In this document: in pieces, positions 12,242 to 61,756 of the stretch
Layout of the letters: each line of letters begins with the position of its first letter
Position numbering within the stretch: position 1 is the stretch's first letter
DNA from: Bacteroidota bacterium
GTDB lineage: Bacteria > Bacteroidota > Bacteroidia > Bacteroidales > Paludibacteraceae
Assembly: GCA_022708465.1 (NCBI GenBank)
Contig: JAKIYQ010000002.1
Location: forward strand, 160-64,159
DNA length: 64,000 nt
Reading direction: 5' to 3'
Made by a program: the position numbers and the translations under genes
Notes under the pieces: model-generated
Seen by the model: only the letters and a program-made list of their open reading frames with translations
Database searches by the model: none
What the model was told of the DNA's origin: nothing

Positions 12242-12312
12242 TGTCTCATGGTGTAATGGTAGCACTGCAGTTTTTGGTTCTGCCTGTCGAAGTTCGAATC
12301 TTCGTGAGACAA
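12242..12312 (+). tRNA. tRNA-Gln (anticodon TTG)
   Basis: Hand-folded cloverleaf. Acceptor TGTCTCA/TGAGACA, D arm GTGT-AATGGTA-GCAC, anticodon loop TTTTGGT, T arm CGAAG-TTCGAAT-CTTCG, discriminator A. There is a U31-U39 mismatch. Confidence 0.88.
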
Positions 12313-12409: not shown

Positions 12410-12483
12410 TGGGCCCACTTGGACTTGAACCAAGGACCTGCGGGTTATGAGTCCGATGCTCTAACCAACTGAGCTATAGGCCC
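12410..12483 (-). tRNA. tRNA with CAT anticodon (elongator Met, or Ile2 if lysidinylated)
   Basis: Reverse complement is GGGCCTATAGCTCAGTTGGTTAGAGCATCGGACTCATAACCCGCAGGTCCTTGGTTCAAGTCCAAGTGGGCCCA. The G1-C72 pair argues for an elongator. Anticodon loop is CTCATAA. The anticodon stem has only 3 Watson-Crick pairs. Confidence 0.85.
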
Positions 12484-55115: not shown

Positions 55116-55705
55116 TCAAATGAAGTCTAATTTCAGATCCTTAAATAATTTTCTTAATTCATGATTTTTTTCAGCCATGTAGCGTGCTTTCTCTTTTGAT
55201 GAGGTTGGCAATACTGATTGTTGCTCCATTAGCTCGGTGCTAATTGCAATAGTATCATTATCAAGCGCATCCGCAAGGTATTTGTGTAGAGTAGGTATTA
55301 ATTTTTTAACCTCCGAGTCGACAATGCTATTAGGAACCTTTATTGTTATATTTTTTTCTTCATCAACCAACGGGATTTGCTTAAACAGATAGTGTAACTT
55401 TGGTTGTTCCGATATCTTGTTCGGAAAAGAATACCATGCTGCAATAAGTTCGTCAGTAGTAAATTCTTTTAAACGTATTTCTTCTATTTTCTTTTGTTCC
55501 GGCTTATTTTTACTCTCTTGTCTGTTGAGTAAACCACGTAACGACATTATAGGAGCAACTTTAATATCTGATGCAGATGGTGCTGCCTCATTCGTCTTGT
55601 TGATTTGTGGACTGATATTTGATGCAACAGACGTAGCTTTGGTGAATTCGGAAGGGAAGAAAGGAAGTAACGGATTTTTCTTTCTTAGTCGCCTAATTTT
55701 TTTTT
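55116..55705 (-). CDS. dnaX: DNA polymerase III tau-specific C-terminal region, in the +1 frame relative to upstream dnaX
   Basis: Hand translation of the +1 frame from the A10 run is stop-free: KKKIRRLRKKNPLLPFFPSEFTKATSVASNISPQINKTNEAAPSASDIKVAPIMSLRG.... It joins ORF 55116..55547 (EFTTDELIAAWYSF...KDLKLDFI). Confidence 0.7.
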
Positions 55706-56799
55706 TGCCCCGATAGTTGGCACAATCGGATTAACATTAGTTCAACAGCTAAACGCTTATTTTTGCTCTGCTTATAAGAAATATCACAATCATTACAAAC
55801 TTCTAAGGCATCATACAAAAAATCGACCGAACATCTTGAAGCTTGTTCTATGTATTTGTCTCTGATGCTGGAACCGACTTCTAGAAGATCTGCCGTACTT
55901 TTGTCTTTGCAAACTAAAGTATCACGCAAATGTTCTGACAAACCGGTAACATAATTATGTGCATCAAATCCTCTGTTTAAAATTTCGTTGAAAAGTAATA
56001 AGGCAGCAGGAACATTGTTTGTTAAGAATAAATCAATCGAACGGAAATAATAATCGTAATCAAGTATGTTTAGATTCTCAATTACACTATGATAGTCGAC
56101 TTTTGAGCCGCAGAAACTTACAACTTGGTCGAATGTAGAAAGTGCATCTCTCATACCTCCATCAGATTTCAAGGCTATAACATTTAAAGCTTCGTCATCT
56201 ATTTCAACTCCTTCTTTGGATGCGATGTCTTTTAAATGCGCAACTGTATCCTTTACACTGATGCGATTAAAATCATAAATCTGACAACGAGATAATATAG
56301 TAGCAATTACCTTGTGCTTTTCGGTAGTTGCTAAGATGAAAATAGCGTATGATGGCGGTTCTTCCAAGGTCTTCAAAAAGGCATTAAAAGCAGATGATGT
56401 AAGCATGTGAACCTCATCAATAATGTATACGCTGTATTTACCTATTTGTGGCGGGATTCTAACCTGATCTGTCAAATTTCTTATATCGTCAACACTATTG
56501 TTTGATGCGGCATCTAACTCGTGAATATTGAAAGATCTGCCATCAGCAAATGCTTTGCAAGATTCGCATTCACCACAAGCTTCTCCGTCTTTTGTAGGAT
56601 TAAAACAATTAATGGTTTTTGCGAAAATGCGTGCAGTAGTAGTCTTTCCAACTCCTCTCGAACCGCAAAATAAGTATGCATGAGCTAATTGTCCGCTTTT
56701 AATTGCATTCTTTAATGTAGTGACGAGTGGCGATTGGCCAACAACAGTGTCAAATGTTATAGGTCTGTATTTTCGTGCCGATACCAAGTAATTATTCAT
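55693..56799 (-). CDS. dnaX: DNA polymerase III subunit gamma/tau, domains I-III (368-aa 0-frame product)
   Basis: MNNYLVSARKYRP start, Walker A GSRGVGKTT, zinc module CGECESC, IIDEVHMLT (Walker B) and SRC motif (LSRCQ). ORF-track start 56904 trimmed to ATG 56799. Confidence 0.92.
   Translation of the reverse strand: MNNYLVSARKYRPITFDTVVGQSPLVTTLKNAIKSGQLAHAYLFCGSRGVGKTTTARIFAKTINCFNPTKDGEACGECESCKAFADGRSFNIHELDAASNNSVDDIRNLTDQVRIPPQIGKYSVYIIDEVHMLTSSAFNAFLKTLEEPPSYAIFILATTEKHKVIATILSRCQIYDFNRISVKDTVAHLKDIASKEGVEIDDEALNVIALKSDGGMRDALSTFDQVVSFCGSKVDYHSVIENLNILDYDYYFRSIDLFLTNNVPAALLLFNEILNRGFDAHNYVTGLSEHLRDTLVCKDKSTADLLEVGSSIRDKYIEQASRCSVDFLYDALEVCNDCDISYKQSKNKRLAVELMLIRLCQLSGQKKN
55697..55706 (-). 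other. A10 homopolymer (slippery/recoding or error-prone site) at the end of the dnaX 0 frame
   Basis: Minus strand reads CAA AAA AAA AAT TAG. The 0 frame stops at 55695-55693. The -1 frame reads KLGD-stop. The +1 frame is open for 193 codons. Confidence 0.9.
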
Positions 56800-56818
56800 T
56801 TTTCTTTTTTTACAATGG

Positions 56819-56826
56819 CAAAGATA
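56819..56826 (-). promoter_or_regulatory. -7 promoter box TATCTTTG (dnaX)
   Basis: Minus-strand match, 20 nt upstream of ATG 56799. Confidence 0.5.
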
Positions 56827-56847
56827 ATAAATTAAAAACAAATTCTG

Positions 56848-56855
56848 TACCTTTG
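56848..56855 (+). promoter_or_regulatory. -7 promoter box TACCTTTG (ftsB-like gene)
   Basis: Matches TAnnTTTG only 5 nt upstream of ATG 56861, implying a leaderless mRNA. Confidence 0.5.
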
Positions 56856-56860
56856 CAGAA

Positions 56861-57169
56861 ATGAAAAAAAGTTTACAAACGATATTAAAAATTGTTTTCA
56901 ACAAATACTTGATTGTATTAGTTTTGTTTGCCGTAATTATGGTAACAAGTGAAGATCATAATCTGCTCCATCGTTATAAAAATAAGAAAACAATTGAATC
57001 GCTTGAGAAACAAATATCTTACTACAAAAACGAGACTGCTAAAAACAAAGAGAAATTGGATGAACTTCGTTCGGATAGCAGTAATCTTGAAAAATATGCA
57101 AGAGAGCGATATCAAATGAAGAAAGTTGATGAAGATGTATATGTAATAATACAAGAAAATGAAAAATAA
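56861..57169 (+). CDS. septum formation initiator family protein (FtsB/DivIC-like)
   Basis: 102 aa with an N-terminal TM segment then a coiled coil (LEKQISYYKNETAKNKEKLDELRSD) and ...YARERYQMKK. Confidence 0.7.
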   Translation: MKKSLQTILKIVFNKYLIVLVLFAVIMVTSEDHNLLHRYKNKKTIESLEKQISYYKNETAKNKEKLDELRSDSSNLEKYARERYQMKKVDEDVYVIIQENEK

Positions 57170-57488
57170 ACGTTTATACGATATATTATTTGCGCTGGCT
57201 GCGTTTTTTATTTTAACGGGTGCAGTAATTAATTTATATTATCCGCAGTATGCTCCATACATATTTTCGGTTGGTGTTGCCTTGTTAATTATAGTGCGTA
57301 TTAATACTATGTATAAAGGCAAAGATTTCCGTCTTAAACGCTTGCAAAACATGCAAATTATTGCCACACTATTATATATACCTGTGGCTTATTTTATGTT
57401 TGTTCAAAGTAAAGTGTGGGTAGCAATACTTACTGCTGCGGCTGTTATGGAACTTGTTACGTCTTTCAGAGCTCCTTCTAAAAAATAA
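57159..57488 (+). CDS. hypothetical small membrane protein
   Basis: 109 aa with 3-4 predicted TM segments; overlaps the ftsB-like gene by 11 nt. Confidence 0.4.
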   Translation: MKNKRLYDILFALAAFFILTGAVINLYYPQYAPYIFSVGVALLIIVRINTMYKGKDFRLKRLQNMQIIATLLYIPVAYFMFVQSKVWVAILTAAAVMELVTSFRAPSKK

Positions 57489-57670
57489 CATCATGATTGT
57501 TAATGCTTATTGTCAAAAGTCATACACATTGATGCTTAATTTCTTGACAACCGTAAATAATGAATCATTAGAATAGGCATCGTTGCTTGTTAAATTGAAA
57601 CTATTTAAGGTACATATTATTAATTTGTAGTTTTTTATTGAATAAATGTTTCATATTTAAAAATAATCCT

Positions 57671-57678
57671 TACCTTTG
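57671..57678 (+). promoter_or_regulatory. -7 promoter box TACCTTTG (aromatic amino-acid operon)
   Basis: Matches TAnnTTTG, 22 nt upstream of the leader-peptide ATG. Confidence 0.55.
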
Positions 57679-57699
57679 ACCCATAATTATTGAGAACAA

Positions 57700-57756
57700 A
57701 TGAGAAATTTATCTTTTACATACTTTTATTTTTACTTTTACTTTAGCACGAAGTGA
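57700..57756 (+). CDS. Phe/Tyr-rich leader peptide MRNLSFTYFYFYFYFSTK
   Basis: ATG 57700, TGA 57754-56. Of 18 codons, 5 are Phe (TTT) and 4 are Tyr (TAC/TAT), alternating. Sits immediately 5' of the antiterminator/terminator structure and pheA. Confidence 0.75.
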   Translation: MRNLSFTYFYFYFYFSTK

Positions 57757-57816
57757 ACGGGATTTAATGTATGTAATATGAAATAAAGATCATTCTAGAA
57801 TATATAAGAATCCCGT
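57757..57816 (+). promoter_or_regulatory. antiterminator helix of the attenuator
   Basis: ACGGGATTT (57757-65) pairs with GAATCCCGT (57808-16). This is mutually exclusive with the terminator 5' arm. Confidence 0.65.
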
Positions 57817-57841
57817 CCGTAAGGTCGGGATTCTTTTTTTT
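57807..57841 (+). terminator. attenuator intrinsic terminator
   Basis: AGAATCCCG-T-CC-GTAA-GG-T-CGGGATTCT hairpin followed by a T8 run, 14 nt before the pheA ATG. Confidence 0.8.
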
Positions 57842-57855
57842 AAAAACACATATTT

Positions 57856-58698
57856 ATGAAAAGAAAAATTGCAATTCAGGGAGTAGCAGGATCTTTCCAC
57901 GACATCGCTGCAAAAAATTATTTTAAGGGTGATGAACTTGATATAATACCATGCGGTACTTTTAAGGAAGTATTTGCGACCATTAAAAAAGATAATTCTG
58001 TAATAGGAGTTATTGCAATAGAGAATACGATTGCCGGAAGTTTGCTTCCCAATCACAATCTATTGAAAGATAGCGGGTTGCGTATCATGGGCGAAACAAA
58101 ATTACGAATAGAACACAATTTGGTTTGTTTAAAAGGCCAAACAATTGACGATGTTCATGACGTTTATTCACATCCAATTGCTTTGATGCAGTGTGAAGAT
58201 TTCTTGGCACAACATCCTCATCTTTGCGCAGTAGAAAGTGATGATACTGCACAAAGCGCTAAACGGATAGCCGAAAATAATATAATGGGTAGAGCAGCAA
58301 TTTGCGGAAAATTAGCAGCAGATATTTATGGACTTGAGATTTTAGCATCGGGTATAGAGACTAATAAAAGGAACTTTACCCGTTTTTTAATTATTGGCGA
58401 TCCTTGGACTGCTGATGAACACCTCAAAGGAAAAACTGTGGATAAATCATCAATGGTATTTGCCTTGCCTCATGAAGAAGGTAGTTTAGCAAAGGTTTTG
58501 TCAATATTGTCTTACTATAACATAAACTTAACCAAAATACAATCACTACCAATAATCGGCAGAGAATGGGAATATTTGTTCTATGTTAATCTGACATTTG
58601 ATAACTATTTATCATATAGTCAATCATTGGATGCAATAAGACCCTTTACAAAAGACTTGCGTATATTAGGTGAATATGTAGGATCAAAAGAACAATAA
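57856..58698 (+). CDS. pheA: prephenate dehydratase
   Basis: IAIQGVAGSFH start, TRF motif (NFTRFLIIG) and C-terminal ACT domain with ESRP-like region (IQSLPI). Confidence 0.92.
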   Translation: MKRKIAIQGVAGSFHDIAAKNYFKGDELDIIPCGTFKEVFATIKKDNSVIGVIAIENTIAGSLLPNHNLLKDSGLRIMGETKLRIEHNLVCLKGQTIDDVHDVYSHPIALMQCEDFLAQHPHLCAVESDDTAQSAKRIAENNIMGRAAICGKLAADIYGLEILASGIETNKRNFTRFLIIGDPWTADEHLKGKTVDKSSMVFALPHEEGSLAKVLSILSYYNINLTKIQSLPIIGREWEYLFYVNLTFDNYLSYSQSLDAIRPFTKDLRILGEYVGSKEQ

Positions 58699-58711
58699 AA
58701 TACTAATCATT

Positions 58712-59875
58712 ATGATACAACCTGCAAAAAGATTGTCGAACGTTTCAGAATACTATTTTTCAAAAAAACTAAAACAGATTGCTGAAATGAATGCTGCCGG
58801 ATTAGACATCATCAGTTTAGGAGTCGGTAGTCCGGATATGCCACCATCTGAGGCAACAATTCAGACATTATGCGATCAAGCAAAAAAAGCTGATGTTCAT
58901 GGTTATCAACCATATACAGGTATCCCTGAATTGCGCGAAGCATTTGCAGAATGGTATAAGCGTTGGTATGGTGTAACGCTTAATCCAAAGAACGAAATTC
59001 AACCATTAATAGGTTCAAAAGAAGGTATTCTTCACGTAACTTTGGCATTTGTTAATCCGGGAGATAAGGTTTTAGTACCTAACCCAGGTTATCCAACTTA
59101 TACGTCTTTAAGTACATTGTTAGGAGCAGATGTGATTCCTTATGATTTAAAAGAGGATAATAATTGGCAGCCTGACTTTGATGCTTTGGAAACAATGGAT
59201 TTAAGCGGTGTTAAGTTGATGTGGACAAATTATCCTAATATGCCAACCGGAGCTAATGCAACAATGCAATTATATGAGAAACTAGTAAATTTTGCACGCA
59301 AACACCAAATTGTAATTGTAAACGATAATCCTTATAGTTTTATTTTAAATAAAAAACCTCTTAGTTTATTGTCTGTAGAAGGTGCAAAAGAATGTTGTAT
59401 TGAATTTAATTCGATGAGTAAAAGTCATAATATGCCGGGTTGGCGTATAGGTATGTTGGCAACTAACGCAACATTTGTAAGTTGGATATTAAAGGTAAAA
59501 AGCAATATAGATTCAGGAATGTTCAGACCCATGCAACTAGCTGCAGCTACTGCCTTGACAAATGAAAACGAATGGCACGAAGCTATGAACTATGATGTTT
59601 ATGCAAAACGTCGCGCATTAGCAGGACAAATAATGGATGAGTTGGAATGTAAATATGACGATTCTCAAGTTGGTATGTTTTTATGGGGAAAGATTCCTGA
59701 TTCTTATTCAGATGTTGAAGTCCTTACCGAAAAAGTATTAAAAGAAGCACGTGTATTTATAACTCCCGGATTTATATTCGGTAGTAATGGTAAGCGATAC
59801 GTGCGAATATCTTTATGCGCTAAAGAAGAAAAACTTCAAGAAGCTTTAAATCGTGTAAAGTCTATTAAAAAATAA
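58712..59875 (+). CDS. class I/II PLP-dependent aminotransferase (aromatic/prephenate aminotransferase by context)
   Basis: NPGYPTY, NYPNMPTG and SMSKSHNMPGWRIG (PLP-Lys) motifs. Confidence 0.85.
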   Translation: MIQPAKRLSNVSEYYFSKKLKQIAEMNAAGLDIISLGVGSPDMPPSEATIQTLCDQAKKADVHGYQPYTGIPELREAFAEWYKRWYGVTLNPKNEIQPLIGSKEGILHVTLAFVNPGDKVLVPNPGYPTYTSLSTLLGADVIPYDLKEDNNWQPDFDALETMDLSGVKLMWTNYPNMPTGANATMQLYEKLVNFARKHQIVIVNDNPYSFILNKKPLSLLSVEGAKECCIEFNSMSKSHNMPGWRIGMLATNATFVSWILKVKSNIDSGMFRPMQLAAATALTNENEWHEAMNYDVYAKRRALAGQIMDELECKYDDSQVGMFLWGKIPDSYSDVEVLTEKVLKEARVFITPGFIFGSNGKRYVRISLCAKEEKLQEALNRVKSIKK

Positions 59876-59914
59876 TTGGTAACAGAAATTATAAAACAAA
59901 CAAATATAAAAAAT

Positions 59915-60979
59915 ATGAATGATTTAAAATCAATTTTACTTCCGGGTGTAGAAGACAAACGTCCTCTAGTTATTTCCGGACCATGTAGTGCAGAAACCGA
60001 GGAACAAGTTATTACAACAGCCAAAGCCTTGGCCGATAAAAAAGTAAAAATATTTCGTGCGGGAATATGGAAACCAAGGACAAAACCCGGTGGTTTTGAA
60101 GGTGTAGGTGTGGATGGTTTATCATGGTTACAAGAGGTTAAACAAGAAACCGGAATGTATGTAAGTACCGAGGTTGCTACTTCAAAACATGTAGAAGAAG
60201 CCTTAAAAGCGGGAATTGATATGTTATGGATAGGCGCTCGTACATCTGCAAATCCATTTGCAGTGCAAGAATTGGCAGATGCTTTAAAAGGAGTTGACAT
60301 ACCTGTATTAGTAAAAAATCCTGTGAACCCTGATATAGAGTTATGGATAGGAGCTTTAGAGAGAATCTATAATGCAGGAATTCGCAGATTAGGTGCTATT
60401 CATAGAGGTTTTAGTACTTACGATAACAAAATATATAGAAATCTGCCGCAGTGGAATGTCCCAATTGAACTACGTCGTCGTATTCCAAACATGCCAATTA
60501 TCTGTGACCCAAGCCATATTGGTGGAAAACGCGAACTTATAGCACCACTTTGTCAACAAGCTATGGATCTGAGTTTTGATGGATTGATGATAGAGTCACA
60601 TTGTAATCCTGATAAAGCTTGGAGTGATGCATCTCAACAAATAACTCCTGATATATTGGAATATATTTTGAATACATTAGTAATTCGTGAAACAAATCAG
60701 ACAACCGAAAATTTGACAGAATTACGTAAACAAATAGATGCAATCGATAATGAATTGCTTGATTTATTGTCAAAACGTATGCGTGTTTCTCGCGAAATAG
60801 GAACATATAAGAAGGAACATTCAATGCCTGTTTTGCAATCAGCTCGTTACGATGAAATTATGCAAAAACGTGTTATTCTAGGCAAAAGTCTTGGAATGTC
60901 AGCAGATTTTGTAAGTGAGTTTTTAAAATCAGTACATGAGGAATCAGTGCGTCAACAAATTGATATCATTAATAATTAA
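59915..60979 (+). CDS. bifunctional 3-deoxy-7-phosphoheptulonate synthase / chorismate mutase type II
   Basis: KDO8P/DAHP synthase I-beta-like core (GPCSAE, CDPSHIGGKRE) plus C-terminal AroQ helix-bundle region (LRKQIDAIDNELLDLLSKRMRVSREIG). TTG 59876 trimmed to ATG 59915. Confidence 0.9.
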   Translation: MNDLKSILLPGVEDKRPLVISGPCSAETEEQVITTAKALADKKVKIFRAGIWKPRTKPGGFEGVGVDGLSWLQEVKQETGMYVSTEVATSKHVEEALKAGIDMLWIGARTSANPFAVQELADALKGVDIPVLVKNPVNPDIELWIGALERIYNAGIRRLGAIHRGFSTYDNKIYRNLPQWNVPIELRRRIPNMPIICDPSHIGGKRELIAPLCQQAMDLSFDGLMIESHCNPDKAWSDASQQITPDILEYILNTLVIRETNQTTENLTELRKQIDAIDNELLDLLSKRMRVSREIGTYKKEHSMPVLQSARYDEIMQKRVILGKSLGMSADFVSEFLKSVHEESVRQQIDIINN

Positions 60980-60982
60980 ACG

Positions 60983-61756
60983 ATGAAGATATTAATTTTG
61001 GGTGCAGGTAAAATGGGCACCTTTTTAACAGATGTTTTGTGCGTTCAACATGAGGTAGCGTTATTCGACCTTAATCCTAAAAATCTTCGATTTGTGTTCA
61101 ATACATATCGAATGACAAAATACGAGGAAATAAAAGAGTTTGAACCTGAATTAATGATTAACTGCGTAACGCTTAAATATACTATTGATGCATTTAATGC
61201 AGTGATACAATATTTACCTAAGACTTGTATTATTTCAGATATAGCATCTGTTAAAACGGGACTCCCTGAATATTACAAACAATGTGGAATGCGTTATGTA
61301 TCAACGCACCCTATGTTTGGACCTACATTTGCAAATTTAGAAGATCTAAGCAATCAGAGTGCAATCATAATATCCGAGTCAGATCACATGGGCAAGGCTT
61401 TCTTTAAAGATTTATATGGCTCACTTAAGCTTAAAATATTTGAATATACATTCCTTGAACATGACGAAACAATCGCATATTCATTGTCAATACCATTTGC
61501 ATCTACTATGGTGTTTGCTGCCGTAATGAAACACCAAGAAGCTCCGGGTACAACATTTAAGAAACACATGAATATAGCCAGAGGATTGTTTTCTGAAGAT
61601 GATTATCTTATTTCGGAAATCATGTTTAATCCATTTACTTCAGGGCAGTTGACAAAAATTCGCGAAGAGCTCAAACATCTTTTAGAAATAGTTGATGCGA
61701 AGGATACTGATAAACTGCACACTTATTTAAAGAAACTTCGCAAAAATATAGAGTAA
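60983..61756 (+). CDS. tyrA: prephenate dehydrogenase
   Basis: MKILILGAGKMG Rossmann start and HPMFGP catalytic His motif. Confidence 0.85.
   Translation: MKILILGAGKMGTFLTDVLCVQHEVALFDLNPKNLRFVFNTYRMTKYEEIKEFEPELMINCVTLKYTIDAFNAVIQYLPKTCIISDIASVKTGLPEYYKQCGMRYVSTHPMFGPTFANLEDLSNQSAIIISESDHMGKAFFKDLYGSLKLKIFEYTFLEHDETIAYSLSIPFASTMVFAAVMKHQEAPGTTFKKHMNIARGLFSEDDYLISEIMFNPFTSGQLTKIREELKHLLEIVDAKDTDKLHTYLKKLRKNIE

Follow-up and report, generated by a model that had tools for sequence, protein, structure and literature searches.

The region in front of pheA in the window (the whole 64,000-nucleotide stretch of DNA analysed here) carries, with a probability of roughly 0.88, a ribosome-mediated leader peptide transcription attenuator of the classical four-segment type, which controls the pheA-aminotransferase-aroG/CM-tyrA operon. 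The element is real, unannotated and uncharacterised, and the kind of regulator is already known. Evidence for it comes from its parts, their conservation, the maintenance of the leader reading frame, covarying pairs in helices 2:3 and 3:4 and the folding energetics of helix 1:2. Very probably, it functions as the initial annotation of this DNA had proposed, sensing Phe and Tyr through the translation of a short leader peptide rich in both residues.

Architecture of the leader and its operon

Features of the leader region (window 57671-57841) and of the genes behind it are listed below.

57671-57678, + strand: -7 promoter box TACCTTTG of the Bacteroidota type, consensus TAnnTTTG (direct sequence reading)
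57700-57756, + strand: leader ORF with its stop codon, encoding MRNLSFTYFYFYFYFSTK (sequence reading, homologous ORFs)
57714-57744, + strand: segment 1, the F/Y codon block (F6, then Y8-F15) and 5' strand of the 1:2 hairpin (folding)
57750-57776, + strand: segment 2, 3' strand of the 1:2 hairpin, including the antiterminator 5' arm (folding, covariation)
57806-57818, + strand: segment 3, 5' arm of the terminator and also 3' arm of the antiterminator (folding, covariation)
57823-57835, + strand: segment 4, 3' arm of the terminator hairpin (folding, covariation)
57834-57841, + strand: T8 tract of the intrinsic terminator, its first T still within the stem (sequence reading)
57856-61756, + strand: regulated operon of four genes (Pfam and NCBIfam matches)
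57856-58698, + strand: prephenate dehydratase, pheA (Pfam/NCBIfam)
58712-59875, + strand: aminotransferase, class I/II (Pfam/NCBIfam)
59876-60979, + strand: fused DAHP synthase/chorismate mutase (Pfam/NCBIfam)
60983-61756, + strand: prephenate dehydrogenase, tyrA (Pfam/NCBIfam)

Every coordinate given in the initial annotation agrees with the sequence, as read over positions 57400-58000 of the window. The leader ORF has an A-rich start context and runs from the ATG at 57700 through 18 codons to the TGA at 57754-56. Transcription would start near 57684-57686, about 15 nt 5' of the leader ATG; the -33 promoter element is weak in the window. By sequence reading, the 5' arm of the antiterminator, ACGGGATTT, occupies 57757-57765 and its 3' arm, GAATCCCGT, 57808-16; the latter is overlapped by AGAATCCCG (57807-15), and CGGGATTCT occupies 57826-34. 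The terminator hairpin contains a T-T mismatch inside its stem (57816/25), inner C-G pairs (57817/24 and 57818/23) and a GTAA loop (57819-22). The distance between the T8 tract and the pheA ATG at 57856 is 14 nt. The attenuated transcript is predicted to end at the T8 tract and to be about 156 nt long. When the 166-nt leader RNA was folded, a z of -3.8 was obtained.

Intergenic gaps within the operon amount to 0-13 nt. The Pfam and NCBIfam matches bear out the gene content named previously, i.e. the Phe branch (pheA), the Tyr branch (tyrA), an aminotransferase and the shared DAHP synthase/chorismate mutase (DAHPS/CM). The arrangement is widespread among orthologous loci, the aminotransferase lying directly after PDT in 74 of 79 and DAHPS/CM downstream in 78 of 78.

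Some observations concern the neighbourhood of the operon. Directly 5' of the leader promoter lies a 109-aa ORF (57159-57488, + strand) that matches neither Pfam nor NCBIfam and is preceded by a DivIC/FtsB-like gene (56861-57169). The dnaX ORF (55693-56904, - strand, 403 aa) covers positions 1-365 of the 614-position gamma/tau model, and Pfam gave nothing for the next ORF on its strand (55116-55547, 143 aa); a split gene, a tau C-terminus of low complexity or a short form resembling gamma could account for this. Two divergent tRNA genes, at 12242-12312 (+) and 12410-12483 (-), are the sole Rfam matches at gathering threshold in the 64-kb window.

The Phe/Tyr leader ORF and its conservation

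The F/Y leader ORF is no chance feature. Five Phe and four Tyr make up 9 of the 18 codons of MRNLSFTYFYFYFYFSTK, and Trp codons are absent. The initial annotation had described these nine as one strictly alternating block; alternation is indeed strict over eight codons (YFYFYFYF, Y8-F15), and the fifth Phe (F6) is set apart by Thr7. Among the 955 ATG-initiated ORFs of 10-40 codons in the window, the leader ORF has the longest F/Y alternation (8), the runner-up reaching 3. An alternating run of at least 9 never arose in 20000 dinucleotide shuffles of this ORF; as this threshold lies one codon above the observed 8, the comparison is an indirect one. At least 9 F/Y codons in total were reached in about 1% of these shuffles.

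The prephenate dehydratases nearest to that of the window in the protein database belong to uncultured Bacteroidales and Paludibacteraceae, with 98% identity on one short contig and at most 80% thereafter. A scan of species-representative genomes provided 80 orthologous pheA loci (57-73% identity) from, among others, Bacteroides, Phocaeicola, Parabacteroides, Paludibacter, Tannerellaceae, Muribaculaceae, Barnesiella, Prevotellaceae and Carboxylicivirga. In nearly all of them, an F/Y-rich mini-ORF is located 126-200 nt 5' of pheA. A covariance model (R1) built from 69 distinct leaders finds the element in all 78 loci with enough upstream DNA; conservation of the mini-ORF upstream of orthologous pheA genes, set beforehand as a check of the proposal, thus holds throughout the evaluable loci. 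In the window, R1 scores 107 bits (E = 5e-20) at the leader, which is the sole copy within 64 kb. An R1 match at L058 5096-5187 was rejected as spurious, being a T-rich spacer of low complexity with neither ORF nor hairpin.

The leader reading frame is maintained. A start codon in the F/Y frame is present at 78 of 78 loci, in all cases ATG except for one GTG (L041 2814-2894, encoding (M)NRFYFTYSFYYFYFSKQVRQDFVCK), the lone non-ATG leader among them. From the ATG to a conserved TAC-TTT anchor, all 69 aligned leaders measure 36, 39, 42 or 45 nt, each of these divisible by three. The F/Y block varies in length only in such steps, which argues strongly that this frame is being read. A TAnnTTTG box precedes the leader ATG by 18-50 nt (mostly 26-44) in 71 of 76 leaders, as compared with 4% of random 80-nt windows. 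Peptide length and both the N- and C-termini vary freely between homologous leaders.

Codon content of the leaders varies as well. In the 76 leaders (69 distinct), 2-9 Phe and 3-7 Tyr codons are found in each, and Trp in two. Both leaders of L033 (1978-2031 and 2124-2171) contain seven Tyr and two Phe codons, and Phocaeicola-type leaders (L048, L052, L055, L062, L069, L072) nine Phe and three to five Tyr codons. This lineage-dependent Phe:Tyr ratio suggests that the sensor is tuned differently between lineages. The leader peptides match no NCBIfam model and are absent from a collection of 15 billion proteins, an absence that may merely reflect length cut-offs.

At five loci, tandem F/Y attenuators, each with its own leader ORF and terminator, precede pheA (L003 2657-2966; L007 2637-2959; L033 1963-2247; L034 2666-2968; L078 2667-2977). 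The second leader of the tandem is of a distinct type (...RFFYYFYFYFMRS). In three of the five loci, the gene order is PDT-DAHPS/CM, with the aminotransferase not next. L007, which is labelled 'Clostridiales bacterium', has a pheA leader typical of Bacteroidales, and its PDT shares 67% identity with that of the window; the taxonomic label of L007 is probably wrong.

Competing helices and the proposed attenuation mechanism

The terminator hairpin (57806-57835) has a folding energy of about -19 kcal/mol and is followed by T8; a T-run 3' of the hairpin occurs in nearly all homologues. In the 69-sequence alignment, 92.6% of terminator cells are paired and double changes are seen in 8 of 11 pairs; the observed score was not attained in any of 500 shuffles, and slid registers pair at 36-55%. 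A simple scan for consensus terminators did not detect the hairpin in the window, because of its internal T-T mismatch.

For the antiterminator (57757-65 with 57808-16, extended to the equivalent columns), 84.3% of cells are paired in the same alignment and compensatory changes are present in 7 of 11 pairs. Again, 0 of 500 shuffles reached the observed score, slid registers pairing at 33-54%. The following column pairs carry such changes, covariation being counted per sequence, not per evolutionary event, with the variant pairs spread over several families.

Column pair 90-166: GC 43, AU 23
Column pair 87-169: AU 39, GC 21
Column pair 88-168: GC 61, AU 7
Column pair 86-170: GC 27, AU 13

Column 166 is strictly Watson-Crick with its antiterminator partner and often tolerates G-U with its terminator partner. 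Both helices therefore show the compensatory changes that the initial annotation had asked for and, since their arms overlap and both covary, its proposal of mutually exclusive antiterminator and terminator is upheld.

A further helix had been overlooked in that proposal. Folding of the window sequence reveals a long imperfect hairpin in which 57714-57744 pairs with 57750-57776, i.e. the F/Y codons with the antiterminator strand. The terminator/antiterminator logic of the initial annotation stands, and its two-helix model lacks this 1:2 hairpin. With the F/Y block as 5' strand of the 1:2 hairpin, the element becomes a classical four-segment (1:2, 2:3, 3:4) attenuator, and termination on untranslated or fully translated RNA is explained. 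Support for helix 1:2 comes chiefly from folding the sequences one by one, which over the 69 leaders gives a mean of -17.2 kcal/mol and a mean z of -4.07 (z < -2 in 93%). About seven of the eight antiterminator core bases are buried in the hairpin. Outer arms pair better with their own partner than with arms swapped between sequences (-5.72 vs -4.43 +/- 0.17 kcal/mol; 0 of 2000 permutations). Third positions of Tyr codons pair and covary with segment 2 (C-G 56 / U-A 4; C-G 35 / U-A 5), which explains why 57730-57744 (TTTTACTTTTACTTT) is nearly invariant in nucleotides, synonymous sites included. RNAalifold recovered the terminator alone from the 69-sequence alignment and not helix 1:2, because an insertion or deletion in segment 2 puts the clades out of register with one another.

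We propose that the switch would work as follows. Transcription would begin about 15 nt ahead of the leader ATG, and the leader ORF would be translated. When Phe-tRNA and Tyr-tRNA are plentiful, the ribosome would cross the F/Y block up to the stop codon at 57754-56 and cover segment 2; in most relatives, it would translate right through this segment. Alternatively, once the ribosome has gone, segment 1 would re-pair with segment 2. With segment 2 occupied in either way, segment 3 would be free for segment 4 and RNA polymerase would terminate at the T8 tract. If either charged tRNA is scarce, the ribosome would stall in the F/Y block and mask segment 1, whereupon segment 2 (ACGGGATTT) would pair with segment 3 (GAATCCCGT) while segment 4 is still to be transcribed. 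The 2:3 helix would block the terminator and the operon would be transcribed. The element would accordingly respond to Phe and Tyr by OR logic, the Tyr codons perhaps contributing as much to sensing as the Phe codons.

The position of the stop codons is consistent with this scheme. They form two classes, one located 1-3 nt 5' of the antiterminator core (17 leaders, including that of the window) and the other 17-33 nt past the start of the core (52 leaders). With the stop codon in either place, a ribosome finishing the leader would always cover segment 2. Masked folding of the window sequence reproduced the dependence on ribosome position that had been put forward, termination at the stop codon and antitermination on a stall in the F/Y block. 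When any F/Y codon is covered by a ribosome footprint of 30 nt, nascent RNA extending to 57822 forms all nine antiterminator pairs; a ribosome at the stop codon masks the antiterminator arm, and the terminator is formed. Free RNA adopts the 1:2 hairpin together with the terminator (-36.5 kcal/mol). At equilibrium, the bare antiterminator helix (-9.5 kcal/mol) is outcompeted in the full-length RNA by the terminator (-19.4 kcal/mol), so antitermination must be kinetic. In the trp operon of E. coli, antitermination is likewise kinetic.

It is improbable that the element senses Phe only, with Tyr codons being by-products of RNA structure in which UAC supplies the C for a G of segment 2. Such a role would agree with the pairing and covariation of Tyr third positions and with the near invariance of the F/Y block in nucleotides, and the related element of Flavobacterium psychrophilum was labelled "phenylalanine biosynthesis" by its authors (PMC9723704). 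However, at least three Tyr codons are kept in all 76 leaders and some lineages are dominated by Tyr, such as L033 with seven Tyr and two Phe codons per leader. Moreover, in masked folding a stall at any codon of the block masks segment 1 equally, and the operon includes tyrA and shared enzymes, all of which favours sensing of both amino acids.

Still less probable is a switch made of RNA only, where a protein, tRNA or ligand would choose between 1:2/3:4 and 2:3, and the apparent ORF would arise incidentally from a U-rich hairpin strand. In line with this explanation, the F/Y block forms one strand of a hairpin and is strongly conserved in nucleotides, and its U-rich sequence lacks stop codons in every frame. 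Nevertheless, it would leave unexplained the in-frame start codon at 78 of 78 loci, the changes in block length by multiples of three in all 69 aligned leaders, the A-rich start context and the agreement between the amino acids of the leader and the pathway; in the Rfam search over 56500-58500 (E up to 10), neither riboswitch nor T-box families were matched. Finally, a functional hydrophobic micropeptide, whose small gene would merely end in the hairpin, can practically be dismissed in spite of a conserved aromatic-rich peptide with its own promoter and terminator, for length and both termini vary freely, the stop position switches between two classes, the conserved parts are F/Y codons and RNA arms, the element always lies directly 5' of pheA on the same strand, and antiterminator covariation would have no role. 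Ribosome-mediated attenuation remains our preferred reading.

Relation to known attenuators

The closest known counterpart of the element comes from the same phylum. The leader of the pheA-aspC3 operon in F. psychrophilum, THC0290_N_0195, was annotated as a leader peptide attenuation element (Guerin et al. 2021, PMC9723704, SI D9, Table S7); its start site is mapped, a 5' transcript of 171 nt and read-through in nutrient-poor medium were observed and, according to its authors, it is conserved in other genera of Flavobacteriaceae and absent from Rfam (PMC9723704). The short transcript and the read-through of this homologue are the one, indirect, piece of evidence for premature termination relieved when the cognate charged tRNA runs short. 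When the published 171-nt sequence was compared with our Bacteroidales leader profile A2 (nhmmer), a match of 31.6 bits (E = 2.3e-9) was obtained that spans profile positions 8-161 of 164, with a high compositional bias term. Both elements occupy the same position 5' of a prephenate dehydratase-aminotransferase operon and share GGGAUU / AAUCCCG / CGGGAUU-U(n) arms and a UAUAUG motif. The end-to-end profile match together with the shared arms places the window element in the same family as the F. psychrophilum leader, a family that spans the phylum. The two differ in that the F. psychrophilum leader has 27 codons with a sparser F/Y block (FY...FYFYW) and one Trp. It belongs to the class Flavobacteriia and is supported by transcriptome data, whereas the window element is known from sequence. 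Its authors described it as a Phe element only, without analysing antiterminator covariation.

The initial annotation had been aware of no characterised dual Phe/Tyr leader. As a statement of novelty this is too strong, a homologous F/Y(/W) pheA leader having already been annotated in F. psychrophilum (PMC9723704, Table S7). Furthermore, Stav et al. 2019 (PMC6429828, Fig. 6b) depict candidate uORFs with notable F and Y residues at shikimate-pathway genes; they come from one of five unrelated genomes and are likened to the window leader by their F/Y content. Judged from that figure, mixed F/Y leaders are not unprecedented. In the B. thetaiotaomicron transcriptome paper, leader-like sORFs are treated generically, and neither "prephenate" nor the peptide occurs in the supplements checked. 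Our literature search found no description of a Bacteroidales pheA leader. Bacteroidetes attenuators may be listed in Vitreschak et al. 2004 (FEMS Microbiol Lett 234:357).

We consider it rather probable that the element represents an uncurated family outside Rfam, extending from Bacteroidales to Marinilabiliales and Flavobacteriales, and acts as a true Phe OR Tyr sensor over both branches and the shared entry step. It is to a similar degree likely that within this family pairing dictates the choice among synonymous codons, that the Phe:Tyr ratio is adjusted lineage by lineage and that attenuators are doubled in tandem in some lineages. Dual sensing by one leader peptide would then be the new functional point. 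For the synthesis of aromatic amino acids in Bacteroidales, the element provides a concrete regulatory model that can be tested. Bacteroides, Phocaeicola and Parabacteroides, genera that dominate the human gut, belong to this order, in which cis-regulatory RNA is poorly charted. The leader alignment and covariance model could seed an Rfam family and improve annotation, the 5' fragment being otherwise called an sRNA in transcriptome maps. The element could also serve as a compact Phe/Tyr-responsive part for engineering of Bacteroides.

Among curated families, the Bacteroid-trp leader (RF01692; Weinberg et al. 2010) is similar in being a predicted leader peptide attenuator of an aromatic operon in Bacteroidota, and differs by its Trp codons and by preceding the trp operon. 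Its model found nothing at E up to 10 in 56500-58500, nor at gathering threshold in the whole window. Rfam 15 matches found at E up to 10 in 56500-58500 (MicC, rnk_pseudo and Phe_leader) were rejected as terminator-driven noise. Specifically, Phe_leader (RF01859) matched the terminator part only, with 21.6 bits (E = 1.3), below its gathering score of 55.

The latter family represents the pheA attenuator of E. coli (pheL), with which the window element shares the target function, prephenate dehydratase, and the regulatory logic: a leader peptide with regulatory codons, 1:2/2:3/3:4 helices and an intrinsic terminator. There is no homology in sequence or structure between the two. The pheL leader contains Phe codons only, whereas that of the window mixes Phe and Tyr. 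In E. coli, tyrA and DAHP synthases are separately controlled by TyrR, whereas in the window one leader precedes the genes for both branches and for the shared steps. In concept, the element would be a modest extension of classical attenuation, with two amino acids and a whole branched pathway brought under one leader.
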